Source: Dehalococcoidia bacterium | GTDB taxonomy: Bacteria; Chloroflexota; Dehalococcoidia; Lucifugimonadales; JAAXIE01 | Assembly: GCA_965263155.1 (NCBI GenBank) | Contig: OZ253586.1 | Span: 2,091,002 to 2,155,001, forward strand | Reading direction: 5' to 3' | DNA: 64,000 nt | Shown: positions 41,119 through 58,998 of the stretch, in pieces | Layout of the letters: the number at the start of each line of letters is the position of its first letter | Numbering within the stretch: the stretch's first letter is position 1 | Made by a program: the position numbers and the translations under genes | The notes under the pieces: generated by a model | The model's input: the letters and a program-made list of their open reading frames with translations, nothing else | Database searches by the model: none | What the model was told of the DNA's origin: nothing

Positions 41119-42924
41119 ATGCTAAGACTCCTTGGTGTCACCAACTTCGCCACCATAGAACAGCTCGAAATAGAGTTGGTGCCCGGCTTTAGTGTACTAA
41201 CCGGGGAGACGGGAGCGGGTAAGTCGATCATCGTGGACGCGCTGAGCCTTCTACTTGGAGGACGCGCCGATGTTGGCATGGTACGTTCTGGCACTCGCCA
41301 GTCCAGAGTAGAGGGCATCTTCCTGCTTAGGGGCGACATGTCTCAGAGAATCAATGTTGCTCTTGCTGAGTACGGAATTGACGTCGCCGAAGAGGAGATA
41401 CTTCTCGCTCGGGAGGTCAACCTGGATGGACGCAACACCTGCCGCGTGAACGGGCGAATCGTATCTCTCAGGATGTTAAACTCACTGGCGAGATACCTGG
41501 TGGACATCCATGGTCAAAATCAGCACTTATCCCTTCTCCGCGTGCGTGAGCATATGGATATCCTGGACAAGTATGGAGGGCTATGGCAACTTCGCACCGA
41601 GGTGGCAGAGAGGGTCCGCCAACTAGCGGAGGTGCGCCAAGAGTTAGACGGGCTTTTGAAGGATGAAGAAGAGCTCGGTCAACGAATCGATTATCTGAGG
41701 TATCAAGTAGAGGAGATCAGCACAGCAAATCTACGCCCAACTGAAGATCATGACCTGACCCTGGAGAGGGACCGGGGCGCCAACGCAGAGCGAATCATCA
41801 CACTGTCCGACCAAGCCTACAGAGTACTATCCGATAGCTCCGACCGGCACGAATCGGTCATGGATCTTATCGGGCAGGTGTCCAAGGACCTTTCCGAGCT
41901 GGAACGACTGGACCCCTCGTTGAATCAGAACCGTGAGACGGTAGACGCCTTGACCCACCAGGTAGAGGAGTTGGCGCGTGCACTCCGAGGCTATCGTGAT
42001 GGCATCGAACACAGCGCGAACCGTCTTCAGGAGGTTGAGGAGCGTTTGGGCTTGATCAACAATCTCAAAAGGAAGTACGGCAGTACCATCGAAGAAATCC
42101 TGGCCTTTGGCGAGAGGGTCTCGCAGGAGCTGGAAAAGCTGCATCACAGCGAAGAGCGTGCGGAGGAATTGAAATCCCGAGAGATCAAGCTTCGAACGCA
42201 GGTCGGCAGACTTGCGGGTCAGCTCTCCGAAGCCCGGCGACGCGCAGCCAAGCGCTTGGCTGATGCTATACAGGAAGAGGTCGCCGGGCTGCCCTTGGGA
42301 CACGCTCAAGTGCTTGTGGATATCCGTCAATCAGACTCGGATGACGGTGTGCCGGTTGGGACCGCGGAGTCGGTCTCCTACACAACACCTTCTTTAGGCG
42401 GGGAGTCTGTCAGGCATCTCGCGTTCAACGGGACAGGTATAGACTCCGTGGAATTCTTGATCTCTCTGAACCCAGGTGAACCGCCACGACCCCTAGCCAG
42501 AATCGCCTCGGGAGGAGAAGCCTCCAGGCTGATGCTTGCCATTAAGACAATCCTATCCACGGCTGACCAGATTCCGATACTCGTGTTCGACGAAGTCGAT
42601 GCGGGGATAGGAGGCCGAGTCGGGAGTGTCCTGGGTGAGAAACTATGGGGTCTGTCCAAGAGCCACCAGGTCCTATGTGTAACTCACCTCCCACAAATAG
42701 CGTGCTATGCAGACCACCACGCTAAGGTTACAAAACTCGCCTCACATGATAGGACCGTGACATCGGTGGAGGTTCTGGACGGTGAGGCCAGGGTGACGGA
42801 ACTTAGTCAGATGCTGGGCTCCGATAGCGGCGCTACCCGCACCAACGCCTTGGAGATGTTACTGCAGGCCAAGAACTGGAAGGAGAGCAAAAGGGTGTAC
42901 CCCATGCAGGAAACCCTTGCATAA
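41119..42924 (+). CDS. recN: DNA repair protein RecN
   Basis: 601 aa. It starts MLRLLGVTNFATIEQLEIELVPGFSVLTGETGAGKSIIVDALSLLLGGRAD. It has a long coiled-coil middle. The C-terminus carries ASGGEASRLMLAIK and LVFDEVDAGIGG. Confidence 0.95.
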   Translation: MLRLLGVTNFATIEQLEIELVPGFSVLTGETGAGKSIIVDALSLLLGGRADVGMVRSGTRQSRVEGIFLLRGDMSQRINVALAEYGIDVAEEEILLAREVNLDGRNTCRVNGRIVSLRMLNSLARYLVDIHGQNQHLSLLRVREHMDILDKYGGLWQLRTEVAERVRQLAEVRQELDGLLKDEEELGQRIDYLRYQVEEISTANLRPTEDHDLTLERDRGANAERIITLSDQAYRVLSDSSDRHESVMDLIGQVSKDLSELERLDPSLNQNRETVDALTHQVEELARALRGYRDGIEHSANRLQEVEERLGLINNLKRKYGSTIEEILAFGERVSQELEKLHHSEERAEELKSREIKLRTQVGRLAGQLSEARRRAAKRLADAIQEEVAGLPLGHAQVLVDIRQSDSDDGVPVGTAESVSYTTPSLGGESVRHLAFNGTGIDSVEFLISLNPGEPPRPLARIASGGEASRLMLAIKTILSTADQIPILVFDEVDAGIGGRVGSVLGEKLWGLSKSHQVLCVTHLPQIACYADHHAKVTKLASHDRTVTSVEVLDGEARVTELSQMLGSDSGATRTNALEMLLQAKNWKESKRVYPMQETLA

Positions 42925-43530
42925 CCGCCATGGACGTAGACTCGAACCTATCGCATGTCCATTGGTACAGTCGGCCAGAGTGCTAAGCTGAACTTCAGCG
43001 AGAAGGACCCGCACCGCATGACCAACGACCGCCACCTACGGATTCATGCGGACGGAACCTCTGAGTCTCTTGAGGCCCTTCAAGAAATGTACGGATACCC
43101 TGGAGGCGCCGACCCAGCTACGGCGCTTTTGTTCCAACAGGGACCTCTGCGTCAAAGCGCTGCTCCTCAGCCGCTGTGGAGTGAGGGAACCGAGACCTTC
43201 ACCTGCTTCGATTCTCGCCTCGACCTCAGCCGTGCTAATAGAAGGGGAGCACTCTGAGGCGTTTGACCGCACCGTGTATTCGCGGAATGGAGTTTAATCT
43301 CTGCACGGCGCTGCAGGAGATCCCTCAACCGAGGCGGTGCGAGGCACCTAGGCCGTTATTGCGAGGGGGCACCAACCTGCCAGCAGTAGGCATCCGGTTC
43401 ACTGCACTCATTTCAGGGCAGTTGCAGCCGATAGTGGGGAGGACACACGAATTCTGCCACAGGCGACGAGAACACTGTATTATGCTACCATAAATCCATA
43501 ATTCCATTTGTTACAGAGGACTCTGACACG

Positions 43531-43806
43531 ATGAAGGTAATCAGCGTGGCCGTCGACGATGAAACCCACCGCCTGGCTAGGATCAAGGCCGCCCAGAAGG
43601 GCACATCCATGTCCGCCCTGCTGAGGGAGTACCTTCTGCAGGTACTCAGGGAGGACGGCGACCGTCCTCCTGCGGAGACCGAGCCGCAGCGCAGGGCGAG
43701 AAACTTGGACGAGGTCATGGCAAGGTTTGAGGCGGAGGGCGTGGGTTTAAATGCCAGTGAAAGGCTGAGCAGGGAGGAGCTGTACGAGAGGCATGCGTCT
43801 CGCTGA
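43531..43806 (+). CDS. vapB: ribbon-helix-helix (CopG/Arc-type) antitoxin, VapB-like
   Basis: MKVISVAVDDETHRLARIKAAQKGTSMSALLREYL is a typical RHH N-terminus. It overlaps the downstream PIN gene by 14 nt. Confidence 0.8.
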   Translation: MKVISVAVDDETHRLARIKAAQKGTSMSALLREYLLQVLREDGDRPPAETEPQRRARNLDEVMARFEAEGVGLNASERLSREELYERHASR

Positions 43807-44200
43807 CACCAACATCCTGATCTATGCGGCCGACACCTCCCCAGAAGAAAGACAAAAGAGAGCAAGGGCCGCGGAGGTTCTCAAGACAGAGGATCTGTGT
43901 CTGTCTGTACAGGTCCTCCAAGAGTTCTACCACCAGGCTACGCGACCGACAGGCAGACTTGGTATGTCCCACGAGCAAGCCCTGGCTTTCCTGGACCCCT
44001 TCATGGACCTGACCATCCAGCCGGTAACTCAGGAAGTGTTCAGGGCGGCTGCAGAGATTGCAAACAGGCACAATATCTCCTACTGGGACGCCGCCATAGT
44101 GGCGGCGGCACGAATTCTGGGATGCGACGCGGTCTATTCGGAAGACCTCAACCAAGGCCAGTCATACGACGGCGTCGTGGTGATAAACCCCTTTCGCTGA
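43793..44200 (+). CDS. vapC: PIN-domain toxin VapC
   Basis: The motifs are MRLADTNILIYA (first acidic D), ..YWDAAIVAAA.. and ..VYSEDL. Confidence 0.85.
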   Translation: MRLADTNILIYAADTSPEERQKRARAAEVLKTEDLCLSVQVLQEFYHQATRPTGRLGMSHEQALAFLDPFMDLTIQPVTQEVFRAAAEIANRHNISYWDAAIVAAARILGCDAVYSEDLNQGQSYDGVVVINPFR

Positions 44201-45567: not shown

Positions 45568-46913
45568 GCAGGCTGCTGAAGAATAGTTTCTGGGCCGGTT
45601 AGGCATACTGGTTTAAGTGGGCGTGGAATGGCTTTCGCTGGAGAGTAGGGCGGTCTGGGGTTCCAGCGGGCGCGACTCGGGTGGGGATCAGCAAGGGCTG
45701 GGAGGGCCCGCCAGACCTTACGGGCACACAGCCACGCTCAGGGGATCACGCCGTCCGAACGGCCCGAGTCCTCTCACACGCCACCAGGTTCGCCATCCGC
45801 ACCAGGTTGTAGGCCGTAGCCACAAAGTACCCAGCCAGCCCCGTCCTCTCTACTCCCCGGTACCGTGTCCTCCGTAATCCTCCCACTGTCTTCATCCACC
45901 CGAACACCTCCTCCACCCTCTTGCGTACCTTCTGGCTCGCCCTTGTAGCTAGCGTGCCTCGTGGTGCGCCCGTCTATCGCCGAGTGTGTCCGCCGCGCCA
46001 CGTGAGGCGTCACCCCACGATTGCGCATAGCCCTGACACACTCCCGGGTGTCGTAGCCCTTATCAGCTCCCAGGGTCCTGGGACGGTATCCCCCGCTGCC
46101 GGGCGTCGTCCAGCATCACGGGCACAGCCTCACGCTCCGCCCTACCCGTGGCCCTGCTCACCACGAAGTCCATCAACAGCCCGTTGCCGTTCTCCATCAG
46201 CGCGTGGCCCATGAATGACAGCCTAGCCTCCCTGCCCTTCCCCTTCCGCATCAACCTGGCCTCGGGGTCCGTCCTGCTCTCGTGGGTCTCGTTCTTCAAC
46301 CTCTCTCCACGAAAGTCCACCCACGGATTGCCTGGATCGTCGCCGGGCGGTGGCTCCCCCTCATCTCGCCGCCGGAAGCTCTTGATGCTGGCCACTGCCT
46401 CTATCAGCGTCCCGTCCACGCTGAAGTGCTCGTCCGACAGCAGTCCACGGCGGTCCGCCTCCCATACCACCTCGTCGAACAGGGCCTGTCCCACACGGTG
46501 TTCCAGCAATCGTTTCCGGTTTTTTGTGAACACCGTGGGGTCAAAGCTAGGCTCCATCAGGTTCATGTCCAGAAACCAGCGAAAGAGGAGATTGTATTCC
46601 AACTCCTCGCAGAAGGCCCTCTCGCTGCGCACCGAGTAGAGGGATATGAGCAGGGAGGCCTTCAGCAATCGCTCCGGTGACACCGATGCCCGGCCCACCC
46701 TGGAGTACATCCGGTCGAACTCGGGTGAGAGACGTTTCAGCGCCTCGTCGGCCACCGCCTTGATGGTGCGTAGAGGATGGTCCTTGGGTACCCGCTTCTC
46801 CAGATTCACGTAGGCCAACATCACTTCCTGTTCCTCATGCCTGCCGCGCATCCCCCACCTCCGCTGCGTCTCCCCGGCATCCTATCTCACAAAACTCTTT
46901 TCCCGCACCCTGT
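45568..46913 (-). mobile_element. IS5/IS1182-like full-length copy, transposase decayed by frameshifts
   Basis: Both IRs are present, each abutting TA. The transposase is split into ORF 46063..46851 plus fragments such as 45774..46028. Confidence 0.9.
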
Positions 46914-46923
46914 TAGGTCTCCG

Positions 46924-48102
46924 TCATGCGTTGGGCCAACCCACCATGCAAAGCAGGTCATCAATTTGGTCAATGTGCCGAGGGTGGATTCTGGGCGTGG
47001 GACCTCCTTCGGCATGGTCGGCCCACAGAGCAAAGGTAACCCCTTTCAGGTAGACGAGGTAGTCCATAAACTGGTCTCGGCTTATCCGGTGTTCTTTGGC
47101 GGGGTCAATTACCTCGGGACCAACAAAAGGGGCAGGTGACAGGGTGAAGCCCCGGACCTGCGGGTCGCCCATCCTAAACGAGCCGCTGTGAGATGCCCTC
47201 CCGTAGATGAACCGTTGGGTTCCCGTTCCCGTGGGGAATCCATCCCAGCATTGATGCTGCACGCCATCAATATCAACATCGATGAGATTTCTCTTCGAAG
47301 CATATTCCTTAATGCCGATGAAGGCTTGATATGGGAATCCGCAAGTGTCTCTTATCTGAGACATTCGGGAGAATAGCATGTCGGCATCGCCATCCGCCTC
47401 ATACTTTGCATTGACCTCATTTACGGCTGAAGTGTAGTCCCCCATCTCCTTGTGGTAGTCACTCCAACTCTTCGTGTCCAGGTCCACCAGCTCTTCCATC
47501 TTGCGCGCCCGGCAAGGCACTGCGTAAGGTTCGACTATAACAGGTTCGGTTAGGTAACCCGGGTCTTCATCTGCGGTACCTCGGGCGTCGTCTCCGACCC
47601 GCACCGCATAAACGTCGATGCCTTGCTGTCGCAGGGTATCAATCTTCTTCCAGCTTGGGGATGACGTATCCACGACCTCAATGATAGCCGTCGGCTTCCA
47701 AGCGTTCCTCGCGTACAGGCTGATGTCCGGGGTGAATCTGTTGAAAGGCTCCTCTAGTTCTGCCCGCCCGCCTCTAAGCCCATGGAGCAGGTTGTGCACT
47801 ACGGGGAACCCGCCCCCGCATATGCAATCGAACGGCTCGCGGTAGATGACGTGAAAGCAGCTACGTCGCGGATAGGGACGGGACCGTTGGCTGGCCAGCG
47901 CAGACTCCAGTACCTCGAAGTCCGGCTGGTCGCGCATGTGGTCAGCAATCTCAATCGAACGGAACTCATGGGGCGTTGCCCTGCCGTAGTAGGAAGCTTT
48001 ATCTTCCTGGGATAGTGCGTTTTTTAGCCTGTTCCACAACACGACCTTGGTGGCCCAGTGCGGAGTGCCTTCTGGATGCAGAGGTGTCCCCATGTTCATC
48101 AA
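46924..48102 (-). CDS. hypothetical protein with a PD-(D/E)xK / CoiA-like nuclease motif
   Basis: 392 aa and AT-richer than the flanks. FTPDISLY...PTAIIEVVDTSSPSWKK resembles the PD...E(I/V)xxS..K core of CoiA-type restriction-endonuclease-fold proteins. The rest is unrecognised. Confidence 0.6.
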   Translation of the reverse strand: MMNMGTPLHPEGTPHWATKVVLWNRLKNALSQEDKASYYGRATPHEFRSIEIADHMRDQPDFEVLESALASQRSRPYPRRSCFHVIYREPFDCICGGGFPVVHNLLHGLRGGRAELEEPFNRFTPDISLYARNAWKPTAIIEVVDTSSPSWKKIDTLRQQGIDVYAVRVGDDARGTADEDPGYLTEPVIVEPYAVPCRARKMEELVDLDTKSWSDYHKEMGDYTSAVNEVNAKYEADGDADMLFSRMSQIRDTCGFPYQAFIGIKEYASKRNLIDVDIDGVQHQCWDGFPTGTGTQRFIYGRASHSGSFRMGDPQVRGFTLSPAPFVGPEVIDPAKEHRISRDQFMDYLVYLKGVTFALWADHAEGGPTPRIHPRHIDQIDDLLCMVGWPNA

Positions 48103-48134
48103 TGGTGCCCCCTTCTCTTTGAGAATAACTATTG

Positions 48135-48507
48135 TAGGAGTCCGGGGCCGTGGTCATCACCGGCGTGACGGCGGTGTGCTCCGGAGACTCCTTCCGCTGA
48201 CCAAAGACGGCCCTCGCCTGCTCCCGGGTGAGGATTCCCCGCAGGGTGAAGTCCCGCGCAATCAGGAACACGGCGTCCAGGCCGTGACTCTCCATGGCGT
48301 GGAGCGCCGCCCGGGGGCCCTGCCGCTCGTACACCACAACGTTGGGCCCCCGCATAATGGTCTTCGCCTGGATGACCTCGGCCCTGGAGACGTCGCGCAC
48401 TAACTCCGTCACGTAGTCGTCGGGGGCAAGGTGACTATCTCCTCCGACGAGTCCTCTTGGATAATCTCTCCGTCCCGCATGATGGCAATACGGTCGCCTA
48501 TCTTGTG
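48135..48507 (-). pseudogene. glycine-betaine/proline ABC transporter ATPase (ProV/OpuAA-like), C-terminal fragment with a CBS domain
   Basis: It reads KIGDRIAIMRDGEIIQ..EEIV..(frameshift)..PDDYVTELVRDV..VIQAKTIM.....HGLDAVFLI..LRGILT. The 5' end is cut by the IS fragment at 48508. Confidence 0.6.
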
Positions 48508-48772
48508 CTGGCTGGGTACTTTGTGGCTACGGCTTACAACCTGTTGCGGATGGCGAACCTGGCGTCGTGTCAGAGGGCTCGGGCCGTTCAGTCCGTGTGA
48601 TTTGCCTGGGGTGCAAAGCGCCCCAAGGGTCTGATGAGGCCTCCCAGCCCTTGCTGACCACCTCTCGGGCCGGCCCGTGGGCTCCATGCCCCCTTCCGGC
48701 CTACTGCTAAGCGTCGCCGCCCGCTAGAACCGGCCACGTCTTACCAAGGAAACCTATTCTTCAGCAGCCTGC
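48508..48772 (+). mobile_element. IS5/IS1182-like 3'-terminal fragment
   Basis: It aligns with 27815-28082 of the full copy. It ends ..CTATTCTTCAGCAGCCTGC followed by TA. Confidence 0.85.
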
Positions 48773-48804
48773 TAGTGGCGCCGCACTACAATCGGTGCCT
48801 GCCT

Positions 48805-49830
48805 TCAAGGGAGGTGCTGATGGAAAATGCCAATCAATATTCTTCCGTCTGTCCCTTCATCGCCGATATGGAAATGGATTCGGTTCCGGTGTGCCTCCAG
48901 TTTCGAGTGCCATTCGCACCGATATACCCGGCCCCCGAATTCGGCGTCGCGGTATCGCATCAACGTCTCGCTCGTCCGAATGTTTCCTTCAATACTAACA
49001 TCAATTCCTAGGCGCATAGAAATGCTCATTGAGGAACCAAGTTCAGCTCTGTACAATTCGAGAAACCTATCATTGATCAACGATAGGTGACGAACCACCT
49101 CGGGACGCCTGTTGACATACGCACCTCCGAAGTGTCGAAAGTTTACAGTGGGTGCGAAAGCCAAGTCGGGAAACGCCTTCGCAGCGATTGCAAAGAACTC
49201 ACCCTCGGGAATATTTTCTACCTTGTACAACGTTCGATAAAAGGTTGGATGATCAGCCGGAGTTACAACAAACACAACGTCGACTAGTCTAGGTTGCGTG
49301 ATCTGATCGACAGCATGTGCACCACCGCTGAAGCGATGTCGTGCCGTTACAATTGCCATTCCACAGCCCGCCATGACCGTCTTGCGAGCCCAAGCTATCC
49401 CGAAGCTGTGGTGCGGCTCTTGATCTACTACGACCTCATCATCAATGACAGTGGTGGGGTTTTCATCCCAAGCGCCGCAGCGTCCAAGCAATCGCAGCAG
49501 GTGTGATGAGATGTCATGGTCGAACACGTCACCGTGGGCGAGTACATTGGCGACATCCTCTCCTTCCAAACAGGTGAGCGAACCCCAACCCGACAGAATA
49601 TCAACGCGTTCGCCGCCTTCAAGCAGCGCCTGTAACTCGCCGATCATGGATTCGACCTCTGCCTCTCGCTCACCTGCAGGTACACGATCCAGCATTAGAG
49701 AGTTCTCGTCTACAACGAAGCGGCACTTGGCCTTAGCCACGACGTCTGATCCTCGACAGTTCCGCAAGATCATGCTCGGCCTGATCAAAAAATCCGGATG
49801 GCCAAAGGTCGAGTGTTCCGGTATTGCCAA
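48805..49830 (-). CDS. unknown protein, third gene of the DUF262/ATPase operon
   Basis: The ORF is 341 aa. More likely starts are GTG 49740 (overlapping the ATPase stop in GTGGCTAA) or ATG 49773. The C-terminus is CEWHSKLEAHRNRIHFHIGDEGTDGRILIGIFHQHLP. No family recognised. Confidence 0.65.
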   Translation of the reverse strand: MAIPEHSTFGHPDFLIRPSMILRNCRGSDVVAKAKCRFVVDENSLMLDRVPAGEREAEVESMIGELQALLEGGERVDILSGWGSLTCLEGEDVANVLAHGDVFDHDISSHLLRLLGRCGAWDENPTTVIDDEVVVDQEPHHSFGIAWARKTVMAGCGMAIVTARHRFSGGAHAVDQITQPRLVDVVFVVTPADHPTFYRTLYKVENIPEGEFFAIAAKAFPDLAFAPTVNFRHFGGAYVNRRPEVVRHLSLINDRFLELYRAELGSSMSISMRLGIDVSIEGNIRTSETLMRYRDAEFGGRVYRCEWHSKLEAHRNRIHFHIGDEGTDGRILIGIFHQHLP

Positions 49831-50824
49831 GTGTTATCTCAGCGCTATCGCCTCCGCCAGGTCCAAGAAAATGGATTGCGACATCCTTTGCTGGGAGAAG
49901 ACGTTCGTTTGTAACAGCGAGACGGATGCCATTGAGAACGTGGTCGCTATGGGTCTCAATCACCACCTGAACGCCGGTAGCTGCTAGGCGGACCAGGAAT
50001 CTGCCGATCTGTGACTGTCCTGCTGGGTGAAGGTGCGCTTCGGGATTTTCAACGATGAATACGGAGCCAGCAGTGCTACCCAAGGCGGCGGCGATGATGG
50101 GGAGTGTGTAAGTCAGTCCAAATCCTACGTTTCCCGGCCGCGTCCACTCTGAGGTTACGTCCATGTCGCGAAAACGGAGTGTGGCGGCATTGGCTTGTAG
50201 AAGCCACGTCGCTTGCAATTGAACCGGCCGCACGATCGAGGATAACCATGCCTCAGACTGCGCCACAAGCGTTGCCGCTAGGCTGCTGCCGATACTGGAC
50301 GGATGGAGCAGCAGGTCTTGTACGCGATGGCGCGAGAAGCGGGCCAATACGTATGCAGTAAACTGACCTTGGACGCCCACATCCACGCGGTCGGCGGTGT
50401 CGCCGGGGACTTCGGAAAGGTCTCGCGGACCAACACGCTCAGCACACAAATAAGTGCCGACATACCAGTCTCGGCTGCCGGTTCGAGGATCTACGTCCAC
50501 TCGCTCTAGCGCGACACTGCGCTCAGCTTGCGGGATTTCCAACCGGAATATATCCGTGCCGGTATCCCCAGTTGCTATCACCTCTATGAGCTGCTCTGTC
50601 GCTCGGTGATTGAGCACGTCTTGGGCCTCGCCCAGTGCCAGTCCCAGACTTCCATTCAGCTGAACACGTGGGCCGGTGGTGGACGCGATCTCTGCAAGCG
50701 CGATCGCTTGTAGCACCGAACTCTTACCACAACTATTTACTCCAGTGATCACAGTCAATTGCCCGAAACGAAGTGCGATTTGTTCAAATGCCTTGAAGTT
50801 ATGAATCTCCAAAGAGCGAATCAT
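49733..50824 (-). CDS. ABC-type ATPase of the AAA_15/AAA_21 + DUF3696 class
   Basis: It starts MIRSLEIHNFKAF..LTVITGVNSCGKSSVLQAI (Walker A). It also carries VFIVENPEAHLHPAGQ (Walker B/D-loop) and VVIETHSDHVLNGIRL (H-loop, DUF3696-like tail). Confidence 0.85.
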   Translation of the reverse strand: MIRSLEIHNFKAFEQIALRFGQLTVITGVNSCGKSSVLQAIALAEIASTTGPRVQLNGSLGLALGEAQDVLNHRATEQLIEVIATGDTGTDIFRLEIPQAERSVALERVDVDPRTGSRDWYVGTYLCAERVGPRDLSEVPGDTADRVDVGVQGQFTAYVLARFSRHRVQDLLLHPSSIGSSLAATLVAQSEAWLSSIVRPVQLQATWLLQANAATLRFRDMDVTSEWTRPGNVGFGLTYTLPIIAAALGSTAGSVFIVENPEAHLHPAGQSQIGRFLVRLAATGVQVVIETHSDHVLNGIRLAVTNERLLPAKDVAIHFLGPGGGDSAEITLGNTGTLDLWPSGFFDQAEHDLAELSRIRRRG

Positions 50825-51981
50825 CCGCTGATTGCCTCCATGATGATGGCCCTTGTCTTCTCGAATCTAGTATGGACAGAGACACTATCTCCTGTAGCAG
50901 ATGATACAGAACCAATGTAGGTAGCATCTCTAGTCATGACCTCGCGGGCAGATCGACAAATGTCGTGCTTTGATTTAGTGACAGCATCAGCCTCGGCTTT
51001 TGCAAGTTGTATGGTCCAAGCTTCGAAGAGCGCTCGATTGAATGGGTTTCGGCGCTCACTGTTCGTCGGCCATTTGCGGAATGCGTAGTCGCCAAATACG
51101 TCATGTGCGAGATCCAATCCGCGTGCGAACGCCGCAGAGATGCCAGCAAGAACACGGTCATCGAGTACCGTTGGATCGTCAATGTCTCGGGTTGCCTGGA
51201 GAAGAAAACTGTCTAGTGTATTGTCTTTAGAATACTTGTCTGGCGTCAGGTGCCAGAAAGCCGTGAATCGGAGTGCGATCTCTTGGTCAACCATTCGTTT
51301 GTGGTTGCGCATTGATACTGGAGTAGCTTTCTCGAAGGCGGGCAACGCAACTAGCTGCTTCAAGAACATCCGACTCCTTTTCTTGGCGACGCAATGTCGG
51401 ATCTCTTGGCCAGTGAGTGGCGTACCTCCAGTATTGATTCGTCGGAAGATATCGTACATCACATCAGGAGGAGTCGTTGGCGCGATTACATGAGCGACAA
51501 TTTGCGTATTGTAGATACGGCGCTTCCAGACAATGGGTAGATCATCGAAACGTTTGCCCTTGACGTCAGCGAGGTATTCGAGGCCATTGAGGGGAAATCC
51601 TCCCTTGCCATTACTACCGCCGGTGACAAAGTCATTTACGGTTGATAGTCGTTGGACGCCATCTACGACCTGTAGCATCCCTTCAGCGTCTTCGGCAAAG
51701 TAGAAGGCCGGAAGTGGTATTTGCAATAGTATTGACTCAATCAGTTGGGCTCTCTGGACCGCCTTCCAGACTTGCAAGCGCTGGAAGTCTGGGGCGAGGT
51801 CCAGACTCCCGTCGGCGATGAGATCGATCATGTTTCGAAGCGAAAAATTGTTCGTGGCGACTCGAATGCTCTCAGGATCCCAAGGACGTTCGATATCCCG
51901 AAACTGGGGGTCTTCGGGTTCGATCTGTAAATCGTCGGAGCCTGGTTGGTCAATAGTGTCTTGGGAGTCCGTCACGCGCAT
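50821..51981 (-). CDS. DUF262 (ParB/Srx-fold, GmrSD-N-like) protein
   Basis: LAPDFQRLQVWKAVQRAQLIESILLQIPLPAFYFAED...LQVVDGVQRLSTVNDFV matches the DUF262 core (FQR..vW......LI.Si....piP.....e.....v.DG.QRl.T...f). It lacks an obvious DUF1524/HNH tail. It overlaps the ATPase gene by 4 bp (ATGA). Confidence 0.85.
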   Translation of the reverse strand: MRVTDSQDTIDQPGSDDLQIEPEDPQFRDIERPWDPESIRVATNNFSLRNMIDLIADGSLDLAPDFQRLQVWKAVQRAQLIESILLQIPLPAFYFAEDAEGMLQVVDGVQRLSTVNDFVTGGSNGKGGFPLNGLEYLADVKGKRFDDLPIVWKRRIYNTQIVAHVIAPTTPPDVMYDIFRRINTGGTPLTGQEIRHCVAKKRSRMFLKQLVALPAFEKATPVSMRNHKRMVDQEIALRFTAFWHLTPDKYSKDNTLDSFLLQATRDIDDPTVLDDRVLAGISAAFARGLDLAHDVFGDYAFRKWPTNSERRNPFNRALFEAWTIQLAKAEADAVTKSKHDICRSAREVMTRDATYIGSVSSATGDSVSVHTRFEKTRAIIMEAISG

Positions 51982-52422
51982 CTCCTCTCTCTACAACTCA
52001 AGGGTATCATCCCGGGATTCCCCGTGGCTGGCCTCAGGGTTGGAAGGTAGGTAACATGGCGGCATCATAATAAACTGCTCTTTCGATGTCGGTCAAACTC
52101 CCAGATCTTCAAACGGAAGACACGACTCCAGTGGCAAACCACCCTTGTTGTCCAGTTGATAGTCATTGCGGTCCGCCACACACGTTTTTGAGCCCCTCAA
52201 AGGGAATATGGCTCTGCGGGAGCCTCCATCTCTCTCTCGTGAGGATCTCCCCTCCCGTAGCTAGGGACCGAACAAAATCTGCCGATTGGTTCCAGCACTC
52301 CGCGAAACGGCACTTGGCGCGGCCACCTGAGCGAGTTGGAAGACTAATCCCACCAACGTGCACGGTGGACAGAACCGTCTTCCAGATGTGGCTTGGTGGG
52401 TTGCGAGTCTGCCGACGCGCTA

Positions 52423-53074
52423 ACACGCTGCGGAAGAATGGGTTTTCGCAGTCAGACGTGTCCAGTCTGAGTGGCGGCGACGTCCTGAGTGGGCCGGAAC
52501 GTCGGTCTGGGATCCACGGGCATGATTCAGGTGGGGATCAGCAAGGGCTAGGAGGGCCCGTCAGACCTTGCCGGCGCACTGCCACGCTCAGGGGAGCGAG
52601 TCCGACCGGCCCGAGCCCTCTCATACGACACCAGGTTAGCCATCCGCACCAGGTTGTAGGCCGTAGCCACCAAGTACTCAGCCAGCCCCGTCCGTTCAAT
52701 ACCCCGGTACCGTGTCGGCCGTAGTCCCCCCACCGCCTTCATCCACCCGAACACCTCCTCCACACGCCTGCGGACCTTCTGGCTCGCCCTGTAGCCAGCG
52801 TGCCGTGTGGTGCGTCCGTCTATCGCCGAGTGTGTCCGCCGCGCCACGTGAGGCGTCACCCCCCGGTTGCGCATGGTCCCGACACACTCCCGGGTGTCGT
52901 AGCCCTTGTCAGCTTCCAACGTCTTGGGACGGTATCCCCGCTGCCTCGCATCGTCGAGCATCACGGGTACTGCTTCCCGCTCCGCCCTACCCGTGGCCCT
53001 GCTCACCATGAAGTCCATCAGCAACCCGTTGCCGTTCCTATCCTATCCCATAAATTTATTTTTCAGCAGCCTGC
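52423..53074 (-). mobile_element. IS5/IS1182-like deletion derivative (IRR end + 3' half of the transposase + a second IR-like end)
   Basis: It begins with IRR ACACGCTGCGGAAGAATGG at 52423. ORF 52548..53024 is the C-terminal 158 aa of the transposase. Homology stops at about 53037. A 25-bp ATAAATTTATTTTTCAGCAGCCTGC end follows at 53050-53074. Both ends abut TA. Confidence 0.85.
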
Positions 53075-53089
53075 TAATGGTATCTCTCC

Positions 53090-53812: not shown

Positions 53813-55225
53813 TCACATTTTCTCTGTCATAGCCGCCTTAGCAATCCCCAAAGCCAGTTGATGGTTAGTGTCCTCATATTTCAACTGTCTAAGGGCTTCC
53901 ACGTACACTACGGGCGCCAAATCGGACGGGTTACCTGCTTGACTGGCCCATTCACGACATCTCTTGATGAACCCCGGGACGGGACATCCAGTCAGATACT
54001 CCTCAATGTTGAACCATGCTCCTGCCTGATCATTGGTTGGCCAAGTGTGTCTGCGGAAGGGGCTGTCGCTGTGGAACAGAACCGACAGCTCCAGGATGAT
54101 CGGGTCGATACAAGCTGGAGCAGAGCCGACGTTAGCGAAATCTATAACGACTGCTCCTTCCGACCCATTGCAAAGAACGTTAGAGCCGTGTAGGTCTCCG
54201 TGCTGATAGCTTGTTGTTATCTCCTGTTCAGTGCTCTCAAACTTCTCTATCGCACCGAGTGTTGCTTGATATTTGAGCAATCTGGAGTCACTAATTCGTT
54301 GCGCCCGCAGGTCATGGATACTGTGAGGTGTAGGTTCACAGAATTTGGTCCAAGGCTCAAAAAGGGCTTGGAGTCTTTCAACGATGGCCATAGCAGCGGC
54401 CTCGTCCTGAGCCAAGAGGGTAAACAAGCTCTGAGAATAATCTTCTGCTAGCTGGTAACACAGTGCTTCTCGTTTCCCGATACCCGCTTCGAGCTCGCGA
54501 TTCAACGCTGGATATGTCCCCATCTTGAGGAGCGGACTCACGTAAGAGCGGTAATTTTGCCTTTCAGCTTCTATTTTCGCTCGCACGTCGATTTTCATAA
54601 AGTAATTGGCGAGTGTGCGCCCTCGATCATCCGCAACCCTTAGCTTAAGGGTCTGGGCGCCTGACAGCCCACCCAAAGTACTACCTTCAACACTAGTGCC
54701 GTGATGTGAGCGGGCCACGAGTTGCAATGCTCGATTGTCAATATGGTCAAGACCACTACCACCATCCGATAGCTTTATATCGATAAGTTCCAACAGTGCT
54801 AATTCGGCGTTAAAGTGTCTGACTCTCTCCACACACGACAAGAATTCGTCTTTAGGTAGCAGGTGGGTCATGGGGTACCGCTCATCGGTCCCAAAAATGT
54901 TCTGTGTTCCTCCAGTAGAGAGCCTCTCTACAACATTTCCGCTTGTGCCAAAGCCGGTAAAGAACAAGCAAGGTGTACCTGGCGTGCAGTTCCTTATCTC
55001 AGCATGCACCGCGAGCCCATGTTCCTCAAAGATGTCGAGACCTCCATCTTGAGGAGGCAGACGCAAGTCGCAAATGATGAAATCGAATTCGTGCTGTTCA
55101 AGTTTCTCGACGGCACTCGAGCGGCTTCTTGCGATAACTATGGCTATGCTTGGCTCTAGGGTGGACAGACGTGCGCGTAGCCTGTCGACGACACCCGGTT
55201 CATCCTCAACGAGGAGGAGTTTCAT
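53813..55225 (-). CDS. response-regulator receiver domain fused to an aminoglycoside-phosphotransferase/protein-kinase-like fold
   Basis: 470 aa. The receiver (REC) part reads MKLLLVEDEP..FDFIICDLRLP..CLFFTGFG. The kinase-fold part has ANYFMKID (Lys), YQHGDLHGSNVLC (catalytic loop) and AVVIDFANVG (DFG equivalent). Confidence 0.85.
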   Translation of the reverse strand: MKLLLVEDEPGVVDRLRARLSTLEPSIAIVIARSRSSAVEKLEQHEFDFIICDLRLPPQDGGLDIFEEHGLAVHAEIRNCTPGTPCLFFTGFGTSGNVVERLSTGGTQNIFGTDERYPMTHLLPKDEFLSCVERVRHFNAELALLELIDIKLSDGGSGLDHIDNRALQLVARSHHGTSVEGSTLGGLSGAQTLKLRVADDRGRTLANYFMKIDVRAKIEAERQNYRSYVSPLLKMGTYPALNRELEAGIGKREALCYQLAEDYSQSLFTLLAQDEAAAMAIVERLQALFEPWTKFCEPTPHSIHDLRAQRISDSRLLKYQATLGAIEKFESTEQEITTSYQHGDLHGSNVLCNGSEGAVVIDFANVGSAPACIDPIILELSVLFHSDSPFRRHTWPTNDQAGAWFNIEEYLTGCPVPGFIKRCREWASQAGNPSDLAPVVYVEALRQLKYEDTNHQLALGIAKAAMTEKM

Positions 55226-56238
55226 TTTCCTGCAGCCTCACGAGGCCATCGCACTTCGCATGAGACTCCAGACTCAGCCCGCGGGGTAAGGCGAAGTGAC
55301 CCGCCCATGGACTGTATGGCTCTTTGAGCTATGGGAAGTCCCATTCCAAGATGGCCCTCGTCCTTGGACTTAGTGCTAGTACCCAACTCGTTGACGCGAT
55401 CCGCCCCGGGTGGAAGCCCACATCCTCGGTCGAGGACCACAACCCAGTTATCGGTATTTGTCATTCCCCAGTTTAGAATGATGGGACGCTGGCTACACTC
55501 ATGAACCTCAAGCGTAGCCTCAATAGCATTTCGAAGCGCGTTTGCTAAAGCAATCTCAATCAACGCTGGATCTCCCATCGTCACCACGGGACCTTGTCCA
55601 CCCAGCGATAGCTCTACTACCGGCTGCTGGGTTGTGGTGTCGGCATCATTTTCGAGACCGAAGTTCCGATTTTCTTCCTGTTCAAAGGCATCTAAGGTCG
55701 CCCGGCCGTGGCGTACCTCATCAGTTGCAACTCGTACGACAAGGTCGGTGAGATTGAATTCCTGAATAAGCGGTGCCGTAGAGGCTTTTCGAAGTCGCTG
55801 TATTGTGTCTAGAAACGACCGCGCTCGACCGACCGATTGTTTGGTTGCGCTGCATTCATAATAGGCTATTTCTCGCTCAGCAGCGTCGTCTATAAAGCCA
55901 ATTAGAGGTCGCAACTCATGGAGGAACATCGCCGATGTTTCTTCGATCGCTTGGGCACGAATTTCTTCGTGGGCTTGAACATCTGGCAACGAATCGACGA
56001 CCACTTTGGCCGCGACTGGAAGCTCGGATGGCGAGGTCATCGCTGAACGTTTTAGGGCCCTATCAAGAGCTTGCTGCACCCAAGAATTAGGTTCAATAGC
56101 CCTAGCTTTCGATACCCTGTAACGACAGGCTGGTGTCGCGTTACGCGCGAGGAAGCGTGCAGCTCGAAGACGCTCGCTCGGTGCCGCGGCAGGCACCCGC
56201 TCTAGGACAGCAAGAGCTTGATCATTATCCATGGCCAT
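55222..56238 (-). CDS. soluble histidine kinase (no TM segments)
   Basis: The H-box is FLHELRPLIGF, the N-box is LANALRNAIEA, and the G-boxes are VVLDRGCGLP and GHLGMGLPIAQR. A helical N-terminal region of about 90 aa precedes them. The start is ATG 56238 or 56232, overlapping the ATPase stop. The stop overlaps the RR start (ATGA). Confidence 0.85.
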   Translation of the reverse strand: MAMDNDQALAVLERVPAAAPSERLRAARFLARNATPACRYRVSKARAIEPNSWVQQALDRALKRSAMTSPSELPVAAKVVVDSLPDVQAHEEIRAQAIEETSAMFLHELRPLIGFIDDAAEREIAYYECSATKQSVGRARSFLDTIQRLRKASTAPLIQEFNLTDLVVRVATDEVRHGRATLDAFEQEENRNFGLENDADTTTQQPVVELSLGGQGPVVTMGDPALIEIALANALRNAIEATLEVHECSQRPIILNWGMTNTDNWVVVLDRGCGLPPGADRVNELGTSTKSKDEGHLGMGLPIAQRAIQSMGGSLRLTPRAESGVSCEVRWPREAAGK

Positions 56239-58144
56239 CGCCGAGCACATCCTGATAGAACATAGCCCGCCTTTGGAACGCTTTAACACCCCCTTCCATC
56301 ACGGATGTTATTGCCCTCGCCGTAGCAGGAACGTCTAGCTTACCGGTGTGTTCGACGAACCCGCGGCGCCCGTCTGACGCGAGTCGGACAACAAGATCTG
56401 CATCCCCAAGTACCGGGATATTTGCATTGTGTGACGCCAATATGAACTGGTCTCCTGCGTGCCGTTTTCGTAGCTGCTCAACTAACGTTTCGGTAATGAA
56501 CGCATTATCTAGATGATCTTCAGGTTGGTCAATGATCAGCAGCTCTCCGTGGCCACTCAGGAGAATGGGTAAGACGACTGTGCAACGCTGCCCTATAGAA
56601 AGTCGATTGGATCGCTTGTAGTCTATTCCGTCCAAGAGGGACATCTCCACTGCGTCGTCGATCGGGGCCGCAACAATGTCAGCGAGGCTATGTGACTGCA
56701 GATAAGTCATCATGTTTATTGCTCGTTCAGTAGTAATATCAGCTGCCTCTGTGATAGCGTCAATATCGCTGGATTCTACTGCCTCGACTAGTTCAAGAGG
56801 AGACATGCAGGCGGCGAGGAGGGGAGCTAAGGAATTATAGTGAAGACCACTTCCACGCAGCGCGCTCGCGATGATATTCGCATAGCCATCGGTCATACCG
56901 GACTCGACTAGTTCGCTCCTTATTTCGGGACTAAGATCGGCGTTTAACTTCTGCGTGATCTGAAAACGAGACTTATATCGTTCAGTTCTGTCCTGCTCAA
57001 GTGCCTCAAAAATACGGCGTCGCAAAGCTTGAAGCTCCGCGACTCGCTTAGTGCGCTCATCTGCGAGAACTTCTAATGCTCCCAGCTGAGCTTCGCGTTC
57101 TGTAAGAATCTCCACTTGTCTCGTCAGTGCTCCTGCACCCGCCTGCAGTTCCTCCAATGCACGGCGAGACGCTCGGGCCTTCTCATCCGTTAGGAGGCGG
57201 TCGGAGGAATTGTCAGTAATGAGCACCTGAATATCGGACTCTGCAGATTCTAGGATGGCGATAGTGGTTCTTAGGGCTTGCGCGGCTGCGGTACTCCTTT
57301 GCCGAATCCCCGATAGGAGATCATTTTCGCCAGCGCTGTCGGGCCATGGCTCGATTGTTCGCAGTCCCTCGGCGATATTGACCAGGGTCTGGCGCAAACT
57401 GCCCAGCGTGGTCGTGGTCCTGTCGTAGACGCCACTCCTGACCCCAAGAATGGCAGCCCGAGCTTGGAGCTCCGCAAGCTCTCGGCGATCGTTTTCAGTC
57501 GTTGCAATTGACTTGAGCAAATCTCTTTGCTGTTCGACCGCATGAAGCCGCTCACTACGGACCGTCTGCATGTCCGAGATTTGCTCGCTAATGGATCTGA
57601 GTTCATCCCGTACGCCGCTAATCTCTGCCGTAATTGAGCGCAAAGTCGAAGTGAGAGAAACCCGTCGCTGGTCAATTTCTCCCCTATTGAGCCTGAAGCG
57701 ATCGATTAGGAGAAGCCTACCAGTCGCCTGTGCGCCAACCGCTTCGATCTCACTTTGCGCAAGAACCGTGACAGGTGGAATCTGTCGGGTGGATCGAGGA
57801 ACCTCGTCGCGAGCGGCCCGGGTCACAACGAAACGCTCGCCTGCATCTCGAAGGACCAAAGAGATTTGTCCGCCCTGAAGAACACTGAGCGCCTGCTGAT
57901 GTCCTCGGCGCGCTGCGTCCTCGGTGAAGGCTGAAGCTCCAAGGGCGAATCTAATGAGCTCTATCAACGATGTCTTTCCAGTTCCACGGGCGCCAATGAG
58001 GACATTCAACCCAGGAACGAACTCGACATTAAGACCATTTAGGAATCCATCCTCAATCTGCACTTGCTCTATAAGCACTTTTGCACTCCAGGCTTGCTTT
58101 AGCGGTATGTGAGACGTTACTAATTCGAAAGCTAGGCGCGTCAT
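56225..58144 (-). CDS. SMC/Rad50-like ABC ATPase with a long central helical insert
   Basis: The likely start is ATG 58144 (MTRLAFELV). The listed 58240 start reads through from the HyuB remnant. Walker A is GARGTGKTS. The middle of about 350 aa is Q/E/R/L-rich. The signature-like motif is LSIGQR and Walker B is LLIIDQPEDHLD, followed by ILASHNANIPV. Confidence 0.85.
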   Translation of the reverse strand: MTRLAFELVTSHIPLKQAWSAKVLIEQVQIEDGFLNGLNVEFVPGLNVLIGARGTGKTSLIELIRFALGASAFTEDAARRGHQQALSVLQGGQISLVLRDAGERFVVTRAARDEVPRSTRQIPPVTVLAQSEIEAVGAQATGRLLLIDRFRLNRGEIDQRRVSLTSTLRSITAEISGVRDELRSISEQISDMQTVRSERLHAVEQQRDLLKSIATTENDRRELAELQARAAILGVRSGVYDRTTTTLGSLRQTLVNIAEGLRTIEPWPDSAGENDLLSGIRQRSTAAAQALRTTIAILESAESDIQVLITDNSSDRLLTDEKARASRRALEELQAGAGALTRQVEILTEREAQLGALEVLADERTKRVAELQALRRRIFEALEQDRTERYKSRFQITQKLNADLSPEIRSELVESGMTDGYANIIASALRGSGLHYNSLAPLLAACMSPLELVEAVESSDIDAITEAADITTERAINMMTYLQSHSLADIVAAPIDDAVEMSLLDGIDYKRSNRLSIGQRCTVVLPILLSGHGELLIIDQPEDHLDNAFITETLVEQLRKRHAGDQFILASHNANIPVLGDADLVVRLASDGRRGFVEHTGKLDVPATARAITSVMEGGVKAFQRRAMFYQDVLGDGHG

Positions 58145-58166
58145 TGTAATCTTTTGGGGACTGACG

Positions 58167-58998
58167 CTAGGTCTGGCCTCGTGAGGACACCAAGCCTCCT
58201 GCGCAATAGTCGCATACCATAACCGAAGCGTCCACTCCATAGTCCTGGGCTGCCTGGTCGGGGGTGATGTAGCCGTTGATGAGGTCTTGTTGGATGCTCT
58301 GGGGGTTGCCGTAGCCTCCGGCGCCGGCTACGTCGTAGGCGATGGAGTAGCCGTCTCGGAGACGGGGAAGGCGGGGCCCTTGCTGTTGCGGGTGTCGCGG
58401 TTGCCTTGGGGGTCGACTACGTGGACGCTGGTGGGGGCGCCAGCGTGGCCTCCCTGCAGCCGAAGGGTGGCGACTTGGTGCGCTCGCAGCAGATGGTGGC
58501 GGTGGCGGTGTGGCCCAAGACACGCCATTCGCGACGCACCCCGCAGCCTCCACGGTACTGGCCTGCGCCACCGCTGTCGGGACGATTTCGTACTTGTCCA
58601 CCTGCACTGGGAAGCGCATCTCCAGCTCCTCCACAGGGGTCTTCATGGTGTTGCTGATGCCTGCCTTCACCGCGTCGATGCCGTCCTGATTGGGGCAGGC
58701 GCCCATGCCACCGCCGAGGGTCTCGTAGCTGACGTAACGCTGGCCGGTGCGGGGGTCCTGGCCTCCGAGGGTCAGGATGGCGGAGGTGCCTTGGGAGCAG
58801 GCTAGGGCGCGCTCGGGGTAGCCTTGGGCCACGGCACCGAACACCATGTCAGCGATTGCGGTGGGTCATCTCGTGGTTGGCGTAGACGACCGGGGCGGGG
58901 GGCAGCACGTTGACCACGCTGCCTTCTGGGGCAACGACGTCGACGGCGCGCCAAGTGCCGGAGTTGGGGGGAATGATGTCGTTGGGGTCGTTGATCAT
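58167..58998 (-). pseudogene. hydantoinase B/oxoprolinase (HyuB) family, truncated at both ends and frameshifted
   Basis: The pieces are ..NSGTWRAVDVVAPEGSVVNVLPPAPVVYANHEM..; ..AILTLGGQDPRTGQRYVSYETLGGGMGA...NTMKTPVEELEMRFPV..; and ..GAGGYGNPQ....ITPDQAAQDYGV. They lie in at least 3 frames. Confidence 0.75.

Follow-up and report, generated by a model that had tools for sequence, protein, structure and literature searches.

A probable Type I Menshen system on a compact mobile cassette in an uncultured Dehalococcoidia genome

Three co-directional, overlapping genes on the minus strand fill positions 48805-51981 of the DNA analysed here (open reading frame listing) and most likely form an intact Type I Menshen defence system, nsnA-nsnB-nsnC. 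This DNA, hereafter the window, is a stretch of 64,000 nucleotides (nt) from contig OZ253586.1 of an uncultured Dehalococcoidia bacterium, to which all coordinates refer. Menshen was discovered by Millman et al. 2022; a bioinformatic dissection followed in Li et al. 2025 (PMC12065111), while ptuXYZ is the name given to the same trio in Gerdes 2025 (PMC11980606). The Menshen system of Solibacillus silvestris provides protection against T2, T4, T6 and Fado, and this protection is abolished when the DUF262 gene is lost.

Gene layout and identity of the operon

Pfam and PADLOC searches agree with the first-pass annotation of the locus, which had described a defence operon composed of a DUF262 protein, an AAA_15/DUF3696 ATP-binding cassette (ABC) ATPase and a third protein. 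The translational coupling proposed at the same time was also borne out by the gene junctions. The first of these reads GCGGATGATTCG, where the ATG of gene 2 and the TGA of gene 1 share the ATGA at 50824-50821; a GGAGG precedes the ATG by 10 nt. At the second, the open reading frame (ORF) of gene 3 can be read from its first TTG (49830..48805, 341 amino acids, aa), but its start is most likely GTG 49740, giving a product of 311 aa. This start was preferred because nsnC then shares 8 nt with the end of nsnB, the nsnB TAA (49735-49733) included, and has a GAGGA 9 nt upstream; the alignment with the PADLOC NsnC model begins at residue 6 of the 311-aa form and model position 1, just past this GTG, and an identical 311-aa product is present in a public protein collection, homologues being mostly 306-311 aa long. 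Gene 1 may alternatively start at GTG 51975, with an AGGAG 6 nt upstream, yielding 384 aa as called on a near-identical metagenome contig (L001, see below).

All three proteins match PADLOC-DB Nsn models over their full length, and the operon was therefore identified as Menshen. The NsnA model matches gene 1 at 8.7e-116 (residues 12-384 versus model positions 17-383 of 385), and the NsnB model matches gene 2 at 4e-97 (residues 1-358 versus model positions 1-344 of 345). The third protein, which had been left unrecognised and for which Pfam and NCBIfam returned no family, is NsnC: it matches NsnC models only, with PDLC03914 at 1.6e-76 (1.1e-76 for the 311-aa form, of which residues 6-311 align to model positions 1-313 of 314). 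The runner-up matches of the operon proteins were PD-T4-2_A (9.5e-31), HEC-03B (1.4e-31), PDC-M55A (1.7e-23), AriA (3.8e-23) and GajA/PtuA (ca. 1e-14), and the Nsn models surpass these systems by 60 to 85 orders of magnitude. The assignment to Type I was made because NsnA has about 55 residues before DUF262 and a length equal to that of the model, without an extra N-terminal domain. The DUF262/DUF3696 pair, whose mapping to an already named system the first-pass annotation had set as a test of its proposal, does map to one by PADLOC, namely Menshen. The operon is a new intact Type I member in an uncultured lineage, and no new system.

All motifs given for NsnA and NsnB by Li et al. (PMC12065111) were found here. 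In NsnA, Pfam detected GmrSD_N (DUF262) at residues 55-196 (6.3e-22), with the motifs QRLQVW (67-72), DGVQR (107-111) and FRRIN (179-183), and the alignment with the NsnA model extends to residue 384 of 386, through a putative ParBDB C-terminal region. As initially noted, gene 1 has no DUF1524 tail: Pfam found none in NsnA at E <= 0.1, and the protein ends at 386 aa. In NsnB, Pfam identified AAA_15 (3.8e-20), AAA_21 (5.6e-19) and, at residues 311-356, DUF3696 (1.7e-8). Its Walker A motif (GVNSCGKS, 28-35) and H-loop (ETHSDH, 290-295) are accompanied by a Walker B motif that ends with EN in place of DE (FIVEN, 256-260) and by a GFG (234-236) standing where the SGG signature is expected; the EN Walker B and GxG signature were both described for NsnB by Li et al. 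(PMC12065111).

These are real genes under purifying selection, beyond chance, because of the full-length matches to hidden Markov models (HMM), a conserved synteny and low ratios of nonsynonymous to synonymous substitution rates (dN/dS). Against three relatives (79-92% protein identity), dN/dS was 0.18-0.21 for nsnA, 0.20-0.27 for nsnB and 0.23-0.28 for nsnC, and stop codons were absent from all three genes in this comparison. Homologues of gene 3 beside DUF262/DUF3696 pairs, expected from the initial proposal, proved abundant. A GmrSD_N gene, an AAA_15/DUF3696 gene and then nsnC occur in this order on seven of seven contigs, with NsnC identity down to 33% and differing neighbourhoods, and intact adjacent NsnA-NsnB-NsnC genes were found at 20 of 27 loci in GTDB species representatives, spanning Dehalococcoidia, Actinomycetota, and Alpha-, Beta- and Gammaproteobacteria.

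Table 1. Features of the Menshen operon and of the adjoining DNA (window coordinates).
Feature	Position	Strand	Description
nsnA	50821..51981	-	386 aa; ParB-like DUF262 and C-terminal helical (ParBDB-type) region; predicted sensor
nsnB	49733..50824	-	363 aa; ABC ATPase (AAA_15/AAA_21) and DUF3696 tail; predicted transducer holding/regulating NsnC
nsnC	48805..49740	-	311 aa from GTG 49740; N-domain 1-175, C-domain 176-311; putative effector nuclease
Mobile Menshen cassette	48780..52212	-	ca. 3.3 kb; only DNA common to four other Dehalococcoidia loci
Promoter-like site	52067..52096	-	TTGACC, 18 nt, TATTAT; 10/12 matches; ca. 85 nt upstream of nsnA; consensus match only
5'-truncated IS5/IS1182-type transposase fragment	52517..53080	-	upstream of cassette; direct repeats D1-D4, 87-90% identical to 45667-46192
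Near-complete frameshifted IS copy	45667..46919	-	DUF772 (1.1e-19), and DDE in another frame; same orientation as 52517-53080
Inverted IS fragment	48507..48672		directly downstream of nsnC; repeats I1-I4
29-nt repeat	48750..48778		86% identical to 53052-53080; repeat D5
IS, insertion sequence; kb, kilobases.

NsnC, a working model and its rivals

The NsnC subfamily found here is large and without a Pfam family. Homologues number 138 in a 90%-clustered collection; at 50% identity there are 739 clusters, of which 241 have E-values under 1e-30; among the 150 matches listed, cluster lengths are mostly 290-335 aa, with some shorter fragments. An AlphaFold2 model of NsnC based on a 40-sequence alignment reached a predicted local distance difference test (pLDDT) score of 93.0 and a predicted template modelling score (pTM) of 0.89, and the C-domain modelled alone a pLDDT of 94.6. 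In this model, residues 1-175 constitute an alpha/beta domain, and residues 176-311 open with a helix and a short strand, continue with two helices (a long one at 208-232, then 237-244), a strand (247-250) and a further helix (258-264), and end in five strands (265-268, 271-274, 277-280, 287-291 and 301-307). A profile search of PDB sequences with NsnC returned one spurious N-domain match (E=0.022).

Conservation was assessed in 118 sequences, with identity down to 22%. R264, H278, K280, R287 and H309 are the sole invariant residues, and A189, F190, P191, L219, D224, S249, E251, T254, G304 and L310 are nearly invariant, the family T254 being an Ile in the NsnC of the window. Across the three proteins of the operon, residue conservation is strongest in the NsnC C-domain, which may represent the catalytic part of NsnC, a putative nuclease, because all invariant residues fall in it. 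The first-pass annotation had suspected that the effector function sits in gene 3, which is the most plausible placement. It had also speculated on a HEPN motif within HRNRIHFH (284-291), a reading that does not hold: the stretch falls in a predicted beta-strand (287-291) of an alpha/beta, not all-alpha, domain, and R287 is its sole invariant residue, R285 and H291 not being conserved.

According to Li et al. (PMC12065111), a polymorphic NsnC N-domain is joined to shuffled effector domains, with 35 inPIN families and 15 NsnC effector families. Likely nucleases make up at least 12 of the 15, including nine of the BECR RNase type, and PB-BECR1, with its H-R-H triad, is the prevalent NsnC effector domain. 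H278-R287-H309 would fit this triad, by inference rather than by alignment. The C-domain is common to at least six other PADLOC NsnC models, including 03908, 03899, 03912 and 03879, and PDLC03879 matches 114 of the 118 family members (best E-value 1.4e-17), so that it constitutes an effector module widespread in Menshen. In more distant comparisons (44-50% identity), the N-domain shows 31-42% identity versus 60% for the C-domain. This faster divergence of the N-domain, together with the sharing of the C-domain, fits the published picture of polymorphic N-domains and shuffled effectors.

The working model follows Li et al. 2025 (PMC12065111) and draws on parallels with GmrSD/SspE, Septu, PARIS and Gabija. 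NsnA would bind invading phage DNA, possibly modified or non-self, via its DUF262 nucleoside triphosphatase (NTPase) domain, centred on DGVQR, and its helical DNA-binding C-domain, and DNA-bound NsnA would stimulate the NsnB ABC ATPase. NsnB is predicted to be a tetramer, pairs of DUF3696 tails clamping the N-domain of NsnC, in line with the NsnB4-NsnC2 assembly predicted by Li et al. (PMC12065111). ATP binding or hydrolysis by NsnB would free or remodel NsnC, the C-domain of which (R264/H278/K280/R287/H309) would cut nucleic acid, most likely RNA, of the phage or of the host, and phage replication would be stopped either directly or through abortion of the infected cell. The published mechanism is left unchanged by the present locus.

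The PIN-like N-domain might also be catalytically active, beyond docking or RNA binding, which would make NsnC a dual nuclease. Acidic residues are well conserved in the 118 sequences (D11 93%, E12 98%, D76 90%, D92 80%, E175 89%), D11/E12 are located directly past the first beta-strand, like the first acidic residue of PIN domains, and a 2026 preprint argues for an active PIN domain in another NsnC subfamily. However, no acidic N-domain position is invariant, against five invariant residues in the C-domain, helix 22-41 has no conserved acidic residue where the second PIN glutamate is expected, and the PIN-like domains of NsnC are without the catalytic set per Li et al. (PMC12065111) and Gerdes (PMC11980606). 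A dual nuclease is thus unlikely, if the strongest of the competing explanations. Slightly less probable is a related reading in which the effector domain is an unclassified nuclease fold (R264/H278/K280/R287/H309) and the N-domain has a working acidic site (D11/E12/D76/D92/E175); if true, this would define a dual-nuclease branch of Menshen, with a target and chemistry differing from the published model.

Equally doubtful is a DNA-targeting mode of Menshen akin to type IV restriction. Phage DNA would then be nicked or cleaved by NsnA itself, or the substrate of NsnC would be DNA, and NsnB would serve as motor or regulator. The DUF262 relatives GmrSD, BrxU and SspE act on DNA, Gerdes 2025 (PMC11980606) takes the DUF262 protein as a putative nuclease, NsnA has a weaker PADLOC match to REase_II (5.2e-11), and Foldseek and profile comparisons matched the NsnC C-domain to no RNase fold. 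Yet in GmrSD/SspE it is DUF1524, absent here, that cuts, DUF262 acting as sensor and NTPase. The prevalence of likely nucleases, mostly of the BECR RNase type, among NsnC C-domain families and the location of the most conserved residues of the operon in this domain also speak against it.

The mobile cassette and its surroundings

The DNA that the window shares with four other Dehalococcoidia loci (L007, L008, L009 and L014; blastn, 85-91% nucleotide identity) begins at 52008-52212 and ends at 48780 in all four cases, with unrelated flanks. Since homology is confined to 48780-52008/52212, the moving unit is a cassette of ca. 3.3 kb that includes a short upstream region. In L014, homology extends to 52212, so that about 230 bp of upstream sequence are conserved, including the promoter-like site; such sites in the region number four versus a shuffled expectation of 2.1 +/- 1.4, which is not clearly higher. 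A 197-aa ORF following nsnC in L007 was considered as a conserved fourth gene and rejected, being outside the shared block.

As the first-pass annotation had stated, IS debris lies on both sides of the operon (Table 1), and the operon is AT-richer than its flanks, if modestly: its GC content is 53.3%, while that of the window is 57.4% and the adjoining IS fragments reach 63-64%. On the upstream side, the ORF at 52548-53024 matches Pfam DDE_Tnp_1 (1e-11). The 29-nt sequence AAACCTATTCTTCAGCAGCCTGCTAGTGG recurs at 48750-48778, 53052-53080 and 46891-46919, where each IS copy begins, and probably represents an IS terminal repeat; cassette homology stops one base short of the copy at 48750-48778. 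Between the near-complete IS copy and the cassette, the region 46924-48687 (minus strand) contains a 392-aa ORF without Pfam or PADLOC match and short ORFs of 137 and 92 aa, which look by eye like the C-terminal portion of an ABC-transporter ATPase (…DRIAIMRDGEII…), a likeness that Pfam did not confirm. This putative ABC-transporter gene may have been broken by insertions. The metagenome contig L001 (ENA ERZ25068833, ctg54071) matches the window at 99.975% identity along 12 kb, pointing to the same strain or population assembled independently.

With IS fragments on both sides and fragmented or truncated Menshen copies in related Dehalococcoidia genomes (L013, L027, L029, L030, L033 and L034), the cassette could be viewed as a decaying relic, silenced or made non-functional by the surrounding IS activity. 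This is improbable in view of three open frames with every motif intact, dN/dS values of 0.18-0.28 against three relatives, the upstream sequence conserved with L014 around the promoter-like site, and the retention of ribosome-binding sites and coupling overlaps.

Decay is documented elsewhere. Among the seven GTDB loci lacking an intact trio, L022 is cut by a contig end, L013 and L027 are interrupted or fragmented, and L029, L030, L033 and L034 are 3' remnants of nsnC. The last four, being without NsnA/NsnB, were considered as a stand-alone C-domain toxin outside Menshen, a possibility that was rejected since they are truncated nsnC remnants beside IS fragments. These remnants keep the last 45-50 codons and, in the loci inspected (L029 and L033), adjoin IS fragments, e.g. 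MMRLRDVEFNGQVYHCEWHSKIEPHRNRIHF... in L029. Decayed copies in Dehalococcoidia genomes suggest frequent loss of Menshen through IS activity, and the overall picture is that of a system that travels among related genomes as a compact cassette of ca. 3.3 kb and frequently falls victim to insertion sequences. No member of the NsnC family was found on viral contigs in IMG/VR. Two Menshen systems, L010 and L011, occur on a single Dehalococcoidia chromosome (OZ240213.1); compared with the window, their NsnC proteins are 50% and 48% identical, versus 65% and 28% for NsnA, and this combination of alike NsnC and unlike NsnA is a sign of sensor/effector module shuffling.

Other genes in the vicinity are also related to defence. 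A three-gene operon on the minus strand (53813-58240) has a GC content of 53.0%, like the Menshen operon, and encodes a 671-aa ABC/SMC-like ATPase (PADLOC Ppl 5.2e-19, mad3 3.8e-17), a 355-aa GHKL HATPase_c protein and a 470-aa protein that combines receiver, TCAD9 and APH-like kinase domains. It is a 'ternary complex'-type conflict system, and probably the 'first' defence-like operon implied by the first-pass annotation. On the plus strand are a 601-aa mad3-like ABC ATPase (41119-42924; PADLOC mad3 4e-35) and, at about 43530-44200, a VapBC-like pair (FitA-like ribbon-helix-helix and PIN proteins), taken from the gene table of L001. Together, the mad3-like ATPase, the VapBC-like pair and the 53813-58240 operon suggest a defence island covering at least 41-58 kb, and the window at 49-58 kb is readable as such an island.

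Weight of the evidence and comparison with known systems

We estimate at roughly 0.9 the probability that 48805-51981 is an intact Type I Menshen system, carried on a mobile cassette among IS fragments in a defence-rich region. Membership in another DUF262/ABC-ATPase system (PD-T4-2, Dazbog, Septu, PARIS, Gabija, or a HEC/PDC candidate), to which the weaker PADLOC matches from PD-T4-2_A down to GajA/PtuA might point, is hardly credible beside the far better, full-length Nsn matches, a third gene matched by NsnC models only and the absence of a PtuB/HNH, AriB, GajB or Toprim partner; PD-T4-2, Septu, PARIS and Gabija were ruled out by score and partner genes.

Several results nevertheless weigh against the Menshen interpretation. 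Sequence comparison with the PDB found no solved structure of any Menshen protein and no relative of NsnA, and for NsnB distant matches only (OLD 6p74, 3.7e-9; PtuA, ca. 5e-6). Pfam searches of the 118 NsnC members at E <= 1 identified no nuclease or toxin family, the matches being scattered (EryCIII-like_N in 10). Foldseek returned nothing at E <= 0.001, either for the whole NsnC model against the PDB, where the top matches were carbamate kinases and Mre11 with template modelling (TM) scores of about 0.2, or for the C-domain model against the PDB and BFVD. The PIN-like nature of the N-domain is supported by the literature and by one weak Foldseek match (MCPIP1 PIN, 3v34, E=2). The suggestion, made at first reading, of a RelE-like gene 3 agrees with the published BECR placement of most NsnC C-domains, but Foldseek, Pfam and profile tests of it were all negative. 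In hhalign, the C-domain was aligned with RelE, YoeB, YafQ, HigB, MqsR and ParE, each represented by a single sequence, with probabilities of at most 8%, no higher than those of shuffled controls, and HMM scores against RelE, YoeB, YafQ, HigB and ParE (MqsR left out) were within the shuffled range. Finally, the promoter context of the cassette may be disturbed because it sits in IS debris.

Compared with the BECR toxins RelE, YoeB and YafQ, residues 193-311 of NsnC show an order of short strand, long helix, helix and strands that fits the RelE-like scheme, with H278/K280 on one strand, R287 on the next and H309 immediately past the last strand, as in RelE-like active sites. The C-domain differs from these toxins in having no significant structural, sequence or profile match to them, an inserted extra helix and hairpin (258-274), and a fusion to a 175-residue N-domain in place of a paired antitoxin. 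A resemblance to YoeB noticed by eye (W-x-x-R/K ... HR ... hydrophobic strand ... H near the C-terminus) was discarded, as the scores could not be told apart from those of shuffles.

NsnB is an AAA_15/AAA_21 ABC ATPase like those of Septu, PARIS, Gabija and OLD, to which it is weakly matched (AriA, GajA/PtuA), and the predicted logic is alike, an ATPase oligomer holding and gating a toxic nuclease. In contrast to Septu, PARIS and Gabija, the partner nuclease would be unrelated, with no HNH PtuB, AriB, GajB or Toprim among the neighbour genes checked, a separate DUF262 sensor is present, and NsnB bears a DUF3696 tail. With GmrSD, BrxU and SspE, DUF262-DUF1524 enzymes of type IV restriction and of phosphorothioate sensing, NsnA shares an N-terminal ParB-like DUF262 domain with the motifs QRxxxW, DGxQR and FxxxN, followed by a helical domain that is related per Li et al. 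(PMC12065111). Unlike these proteins, it lacks a fused DUF1524/HNH nuclease, the effector and the ATPase being separate proteins.

The closest likeness is to Menshen Type I as described by Li et al. (PMC12065111), with three genes in identical order. DUF262 motifs I-III and a helical C-domain are present in NsnA, which has neither DUF1524 nor an extra N-terminal domain; NsnB has the Walker A GxxxxGKS, the EN Walker B, the GxG and the DUF3696 tail; and NsnC has two domains, with catalytic-looking conserved residues in the C-domain. The difference lies in the host, which belongs to the Chloroflexota, a phylum that is not among the major Menshen-bearing groups of Li et al. (PMC12065111), who report 27 phyla. 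Three unnamed genes of an uncultured Dehalococcoidia genome can now be labelled nsnA, nsnB and nsnC.

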